Below the pieces are notes generated by a model that made no database searches, was not told the DNA's origin, and saw only the letters and a program-made list of their open reading frames with translations. From NCBI RefSeq assembly GCF_056746865.1, contig NZ_CM163382.1: 64,000 bases of DNA. One strand, written 5' to 3'. Positions 24,186 to 24,203 of this stretch are shown here, piece after piece. The translations under genes and the position numbers were made by a program. The first letter of the stretch is position 1. Each line of letters starts with the position of its first letter.

Positions 24186-24203
24186 TTCTTACAACTGTAA
24201 GAA
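24186..24203. promoter_or_regulatory. Perfect 18-bp palindrome TTCTTACAACTGTAAGAA upstream of frc (EvgA-box-like)
   Basis: Exact inverted repeat read directly from the sequence, about 250 bp upstream of the frc start. Confidence 0.5.

Follow-up and report, generated by a model that had tools for sequence, protein, structure and literature searches.

The EvgA box of Escherichia coli K-12 was reportedly described by Masuda and Church in 2003 and by Itou et al. in 2009 (as cited in PMC3720670 and PMC4222967). The box is an 18-bp inverted repeat that is present at yfdW/frc, yfdX, emrK-evgA, ydeP, safA (b1500) and yegR. According to the legend of Fig. 2 in PMC3720670, which cites Masuda and Church, inverted repeats in front of yfdX and yfdWUVE are bound by EvgA in K-12. 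An EvgA binding site is present in all directly regulated genes, and in an evgS-constitutive mutant the strongest induction is that of frc (PMC4283999); yfdX is induced approximately 1000-fold on EvgA overproduction (as cited in PMC6339873), and the emrKY promoter is bound directly by EvgA (PMC8174306).

The NarL 7-2-7 site resembles the EvgA box in that inverted half-sites placed exactly 2 bp apart are read by a GerE/LuxR-type helix-turn-helix dimer, but the sequence of the half-sites differs. BvgA, the homologue that gave EvgA its name, is likewise of the NarL/FixJ class; at the Bordetella pertussis fha promoter it binds as head-to-head dimers on an inverted repeat. Here the high-affinity BvgA site occupies the most upstream position relative to a weak core promoter, and further dimers bind, on heptads, at intervals of 22 bp as far as the -35 region (PMC7250471). 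Like this BvgA site, the EvgA boxes are upstream elements; they keep a constant distance to a -10-like hexamer, and the sequence in between is weakly conserved.

We report that four sites in a window of 64,000 nucleotides (i.e. the whole stretch of DNA that was analysed) are the same in sequence and position as the corresponding EvgA boxes of K-12. The sites themselves show no difference from the K-12 system, and the local differences from typical strains are a private frameshift in evgS and a divergence of 3-4% from K-12 in the spacer around the boxes. We are highly confident that all four are known EvgA boxes, the site at 24186-24203 being that of the frc (yfdW)-oxc-yfdV-yfdE operon, those starting at 25177 and 25215 the ones of yfdX, and that starting at 14197 the one of emrKY/evgA. 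The basis provided here is the consensus match, the ranking by a weight matrix, the identity to K-12, the conservation, the restriction to Escherichia among the loci examined, the intact evgA gene and the register between box and hexamer, while EvgA binding and induction are taken from the literature; the boxes are positioned upstream of units (the frc operon and yfdX) for which induction by EvgA/EvgS activation is published.

The frc box and its genomic neighbourhood

The window represents a part of the E. coli chromosome with the arrangement emrYK-evgAS-yfdE-yfdV-oxc-frc-yfdX. According to the RefSeq annotation of an identical strain, the gene order is emrY and emrK (minus strand), evgA and evgS (plus strand), yfdE, yfdV, oxc, frc and yfdX (minus strand) and ypdI, and K-12 MG1655 has the same genes in the same order. 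Positions 23900-25400 show 100% identity to several complete E. coli chromosomes, e.g. that of strain 118UI, and are found at an identity of at least 95% in 5,416 of 5,426 complete E. coli genomes.

On the basis of the list of open reading frames (ORFs), frc covers positions 22685-23935 on the minus strand with its ATG start codon at 23935, and emrK, on the same strand, starts with a GTG at 14023. The ORFs together with the RefSeq annotation of identical or near-identical strains define the frc-oxc-yfdV-yfdE operon (18705-23935, minus strand), the products of which are formyl-CoA transferase (frc), oxalyl-CoA decarboxylase, a transporter and acetyl-CoA:oxalate CoA-transferase, and a second regulated transcription unit, yfdX (24447-25079, minus strand). 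A terminator-like hairpin detected in the terminator scan (24356-24392, minus strand) trails yfdX and divides its transcript from the frc promoter region.

The cognate regulator gene for the boxes, evgA, is present and intact in the same sequence (14439-15053, plus strand) while that of the sensor, evgS, is frameshifted. The predicted EvgA has a receiver domain (PF00072) and a LuxR/GerE helix-turn-helix (PF00196) and matches the EvgA structures PDB 5F64/8ZWN with an E-value of 5e-132, NarL being the nearest other structure. The leader ORF evgL is also intact (14413-14442; nine codons, MLHCKGNNL) and its stop codon overlaps the evgA start codon (ATGA); evgL is annotated in K-12, where it couples evgA translation to CsrA control (PMC11210196).

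The sequence TTCTTACAACTGTAAGAA is located exactly at 24186-24203, downstream of the hairpin that trails yfdX, and its reverse complement, TTCTTACAGTTGTAAGAA, represents the reading in frc sense (minus strand). Zero consensus mismatches, the top matrix score, K-12 identity and conservation lead us to assign it to EvgA and to the frc (yfdW)-oxc-yfdV-yfdE operon. The sequence-only reading had placed a perfect 18-bp palindrome upstream of frc and the oxalate operon. The placement agrees with our data, the site being positioned 251 bp 5' of the frc start codon, and the coordinates were also correct, but self-complementarity over the full 18 bp does not hold: TTCTTACAACTGTAAGAA differs from its own reverse complement at two positions, both of them central (AC vs GT). 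The box is thus composed of two exact 8-bp arms and a non-self-complementary AC centre (8+2+8, 16/18).

Perfect 8+2+8 inverted repeats occur five times in the window compared to approximately 0.8 times in shuffled sequences, and as a generic inverted repeat the frc site is unremarkable; its excess over chance is the specific consensus match and the recurrence. With five such repeats, one of them only 31 bp from the frc box, the site might be a chance or structural inverted repeat without a protein partner, e.g. an RNA hairpin, a terminator remnant or a cruciform. We give this next to no credence, since the flanks diverge around arms that do not vary, the neighbouring repeat is not conserved, the sequence is that of the specific EvgA consensus, and the real yfdX terminator is situated 150 bp away (24356-24392). 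An RNA hairpin or terminator at the box was rejected: the predicted fold has a free energy of -6 kcal/mol (z = -0.63), a T-run is lacking and the site is absent from the terminator scan. The neighbouring exact 8+2+8 repeat, TACGCTTTTTAAAGCGTA, is located at 24234-24251, upstream of the frc box in frc sense. Considered as a second operator, it was found to be broken in a divergent Escherichia sequence (L006, see below) and in strain SF-468, and it is probably not functional.

Consensus matches, matrix scores and conservation of the boxes

For the motif scan we used TTCYTACA-N2-TGTARGAA, which we take to be the EvgA-box consensus and which is corroborated by the independent sites at safA, ydeP and yegR. 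Allowing for up to three mismatches, the window has four matches (0.6 expected), all of them within the frc, yfdX and emrK/evgA promoter regions, and the frc box matches without any mismatch. Neither the consensus string nor the wording "18-bp inverted repeat" for EvgA gave a match in the literature that was covered by a text search. Outside the window the same motif is found in K-12 upstream of safA (TTCTTACAGCTGTAGGCA), ydeP (TTCTTACAGGTGTAGGCT) and yegR (TTCCTACATAAGTAGGAA), which are EvgA-regulated genes (PMC9496106, PMC8174306).

The three other boxes are situated where related motifs had been pointed out from the sequence alone, i.e. two upstream of yfdX and one in the emrK-evgA spacer. 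The distal yfdX box (GTCTTACAATTGTAGGAA, 25215-25232, minus strand; TTCCTACAATTGTAAGAC in yfdX sense) has one mismatch to TTCYTACANNTGTARGAA, and the weaker proximal box (ATCTTACAGTTGTAGTTA, 25177-25194, minus strand; TAACTACAACTGTAAGAT in yfdX sense) has three, all of which map to the outer three bases of the distal arm; the centre-to-centre distance between the two is 38 bp. The box in the divergent emrK-evgA spacer (TTCTTACGCCTGTAGGAT, 14197-14214, minus strand; ATCCTACAGGCGTAAGAA in emrK sense) has two mismatches to TTCYTACANNTGTARGAA. All four boxes are base-identical to those in K-12 MG1655.

A symmetrised weight matrix was trained on the K-12 safA, ydeP and yegR sites alone, with no site taken from the window, and in a scan with this matrix the four boxes rank 1-4 among approximately 64,000 positions. 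The frc box has the highest score (22.1 bits, rank 1; reached in 0 of 200 shuffled windows) followed by the emrK-evgA box (19.2 bits, rank 2; 1 of 200, 0.5%) and the distal yfdX box (15.1 bits, rank 3; 11% of the shuffled windows). The proximal yfdX box scores 12.4 bits, which is reached in 45% of the shuffled windows and on its own is at chance level; for this box the support is conservation and position and not its own score. The proposal that the motifs are of the EvgA-box type is borne out by the ranks given by this independent matrix and by the identity to the K-12 boxes; a matrix scan could have spoken against it, and as a set the boxes are not below background, with the frc box clear of all the shuffles and the weakest one at chance alone. 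In the K-12 gadE upstream region no site was detected with up to three mismatches. The sole match in the 16-kb gadE locus is positioned inside mdtE and is probably due to chance; gadE was kept out of the matrix.

The motif might instead be the site of another regulator with similar half-sites, such as RcsB, NarL or GadE. The family of EvgA is a large one in which related 7-2-7 or 8-2-8 sites are found, and NarL and RcsB are structural relatives, but the motif recurs specifically at EvgA-regulated promoters (safA, ydeP and yegR). Taken jointly with the H-NS-based reading that is discussed together with the promoter register, we consider this very improbable. The patterns used for comparison were TACYYMT-N2-AKRRGTA for the NarL 7-2-7 site and TAAGAATNNTCCTA for the RcsAB box. 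Neither of these matches the frc site with up to three mismatches, and in the window they occur at chance frequency.

To return to the EvgA boxes, nine Escherichia sequences were aligned over the spacer between frc and yfdX and over the region upstream of yfdX; these were the window, K-12, six further E. coli (96-98% spacer identity) and the divergent Escherichia L006. In the three boxes covered (the frc box and the two yfdX boxes) 1 of 48 arm columns and 4 of 6 centre columns are variable, compared to 162 of 752 other spacer columns (arms vs other spacer columns, Fisher p = 3e-4). The arms of the frc box are invariant and its centre is variable across the aligned sequences; the distal yfdX box has invariant arms with the sole change in the centre; and in the proximal yfdX box CTACA..TGTAAGAT is invariant and the centre variable, the one variable arm column belonging to the outer, non-consensus part of this weak box. 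Constrained arms and a free centre is the pattern expected from a dimer that would read two 8-bp half-sites and ignore the centre.

The divergent sequence L006 is that of Escherichia 'coli' SCPM-O-B-8794 (≈85% spacer identity), with the frc and emrK-evgA boxes at 9732-9749 and 19729-19746, respectively, of its locus. Its frc box has a GC centre and is a true 18-bp palindrome, TTCTTACAGCTGTAAGAA, and its emrK-evgA box, TTCCTACAGGTGTAAGAA, is a perfect match to the consensus, while E. coli proper has two mismatches in that box.

A search for Frc over 100,044 species genomes resulted in one Escherichia locus among the matches listed. No sites of at least 15 bits were detected in 1.47 Mb around the frc homologues of the 79 non-Escherichia genomes among the matches listed. 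The closest non-Escherichia Frc proteins among the matches listed are those of Moellerella wisconsensis and Providencia stuartii (86% protein identity); upstream of frc in these two (10001-11248 in each locus) there is no EvgA-box-like site, and the best scores in the two loci (≈12-13 bits) are at chance level. Among the loci examined, control of the oxalate operon by EvgA therefore appears to have been acquired specifically in Escherichia. The absence of the box in non-Escherichia frc loci agrees with the report that EvgS/EvgA is confined to E. coli and Shigella (PMC9496106, PMC8174306).

The register between box and promoter

The upstream regions of the six genes with EvgA-box promoters (frc, yfdX, emrK, safA, ydeP and yegR) were superimposed at their boxes, each read in the direction of the gene that it regulates. 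All six promoters, which are only partly independent (safA and ydeP are identical at 39 of 62 positions in register, and CTCTCTGATT is common to frc and yfdX), have a TANNNT hexamer that begins 53 or 54 bp downstream of the box, and none of 5000 rotations of the downstream sequence reached 6 of 6. Moreover, the promoter-facing arm is the better arm in all six (TGTAAGAA or a close variant), and common to the six promoters are CA at +9/+10, TC at +26/+27 and T at +31.

The identity between safA and ydeP refers to the same register downstream of their boxes (K-12 locus L002, upstream regions 5961-6207 and 8488-8820), and it suggests that the two promoters may have arisen by duplication of one box-plus-promoter module. 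In frc and yfdX, the shared CTCTCTGATT is present at the same offset.

A simple sigma-70 scan did not predict any promoter between the frc box and frc and the box is positioned 251 bp from the start codon, so the frc promoter was placed by way of the shared register. The candidate -10 of an EvgA-dependent frc promoter is at 24127-24137 (minus strand), where TATCAT (24137-24132) overlaps TATTCT (24132-24127), and this block is conserved in the Escherichia spacer alignment. For yfdX the candidate -10 hexamer is TATGAT (25118-25123, minus strand) at an offset of 54 from the proximal box; the promoter scan gave TTCTCA-16-TATGAT in this region, and TATGAT is invariant in the Escherichia alignment. 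In the case of emrK the TANNNT hexamer in register with the emrK-evgA box is at 14138-14143. If the hexamer is the true -10 element, the centre of the box would be near -74.

On the basis of RpoD-SELEX, a different, constitutive frc promoter has been predicted upstream of the box, and the same source marks this spacer as H-NS-bound (PMC3946193). EvgA might then act mainly by displacing H-NS and not by contacting RNA polymerase, and the frc-yfdX spacer is indeed AT-rich (31-37% G+C vs 48% for the window). Pure anti-silencing is, on the other hand, hard to combine with the fixed 53/54-bp register to the -10-like hexamer, which points to RNA polymerase being contacted stereospecifically. Counter-silencing of H-NS in an AT-rich spacer could make a contribution, but as the main mode of action we assign it, together with the possibility of another regulator, only a very small likelihood.

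Activation by EvgA from the boxes remains our preferred interpretation. From the literature and the regulator family it is established that phosphate passes from EvgS to EvgA, that phosphorylated EvgA binds the box as a dimer, and that frc-oxc-yfdV-yfdE, yfdX and emrKY are activated. In the proposed mechanism EvgS phosphorylates EvgA under mild acid, and EvgA, a NarL/FixJ class regulator with a LuxR-type helix-turn-helix, would bind the box as a head-to-head dimer. Each EvgA monomer would read one 8-bp arm (TTCYTACA) and the 2-bp centre would not be read. The bound dimer would activate transcription from a constant position relative to a weak sigma-70 promoter downstream, with the edge of the box 53-54 bp upstream of the -10-like hexamer; here both the position of the promoter and the mode of RNA polymerase contact are putative.

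An extended version of this layout can be outlined, which we put forward tentatively and regard as rather unlikely. In such a register-locked EvgA promoter the better half-site would be promoter-facing, the hexamer would be at 53-54 bp, and CA at +9/+10 together with TCnnATT at +26 to +32 would act as low-affinity secondary half-sites, with BvgA-like loading from one strong distal dimer toward the -35. In contrast to the BvgA sites, the EvgA secondary sites are candidates only, and the CA and TCnnATT elements fit a 20- or 22-bp spacing loosely.

The evgS frameshift and the EvgA regulon in this isolate

The evgS gene (15058-18650, plus strand) is disrupted by a 1-bp deletion near 16802. Compared to strain 118UI one G is missing (CTCGGAC to CTCGAC), which is the sole difference in 3,594 nucleotides and confirms the frameshift noted from the sequence alone; the deletion changes GG to G, with no long homopolymer in its context. 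The result is two ORFs. The first, at 15058-16833 (591 codons), carries two periplasmic solute-binding-type domains while the second, at 16908-18650 (580 codons), carries HisKA, HATPase, receiver and HPt domains, and no ribosome-binding site is evident for the latter.

Of the 5,426 complete E. coli genomes none has the deletion, 99.5% being the best match, and over 25.5 kb the window differs from the evgS-intact 118UI only by the evgS deletion, one mismatch and a 709-bp IS200 insertion. A paper on natural EvgS variation mentions no frameshift or nonsense alleles of evgS (PMC5706723). The frameshift is a recent mutation private to this sequence or else a sequencing error.

Relative to 118UI, the insertion, IS200C, covers positions 29941-30649 inside the sensor kinase gene ypdA/pyrS, and its tnpA ORF (IS200/IS605 family) is at 30048-30557 on the minus strand. 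In consequence evgS and ypdA/pyrS, both of them coding for sensor kinases, are disrupted within 15 kb of each other.

If real, the frameshift would cut the link between acid sensing and the kinase core, and the boxes would probably not be in use for the acid response. The boxes may in that case be genuine but silent relics in this isolate, i.e. the frameshift ends the signalling such that frc, yfdX and emrKY are no longer acid-inducible. We regard the chances of this as evenly balanced. EvgS is split into a periplasmic fragment and a kinase/receiver/HPt ORF without an obvious ribosome-binding site, as expected if signalling is lost; yet the absence of the deletion from all 5,426 complete genomes and the near-identity to an evgS-intact strain over 25.5 kb suggest that it may be a sequencing or assembly error, or very recent. 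Moreover, EvgA could still receive phosphate from other donors or from a restarted C-terminal fragment.

It had also been proposed that the cis elements of the regulon are intact even though evgS is frameshifted. The boxes are indeed intact, but the significance of this is close to nil: because the deletion is private to this sequence and the window is nearly identical to the evgS-intact 118UI, there has been no time for the boxes to decay. With a frameshift that is very recent or an error, intact boxes are expected and are uninformative with respect to selection.

The EvgA-box element is already known, and its recognition here is a correct but ordinary observation of little importance beyond annotation. 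The site represents the standard wiring of the EvgA regulon in this isolate, encompassing oxalate-dependent acid tolerance (frc-oxc), yfdX and the EmrKY pump. The register-locked promoter layout, if unpublished, would be an aid in predicting EvgA-dependent promoters and in mechanistic work that builds on the analogy to BvgA. Finally, if the evgS deletion is real, the isolate should be blind to mild acid via EvgS with all its operators intact, and the private deletion would bear on the natural variation in EvgS activity among E. coli isolates (PMC5706723).
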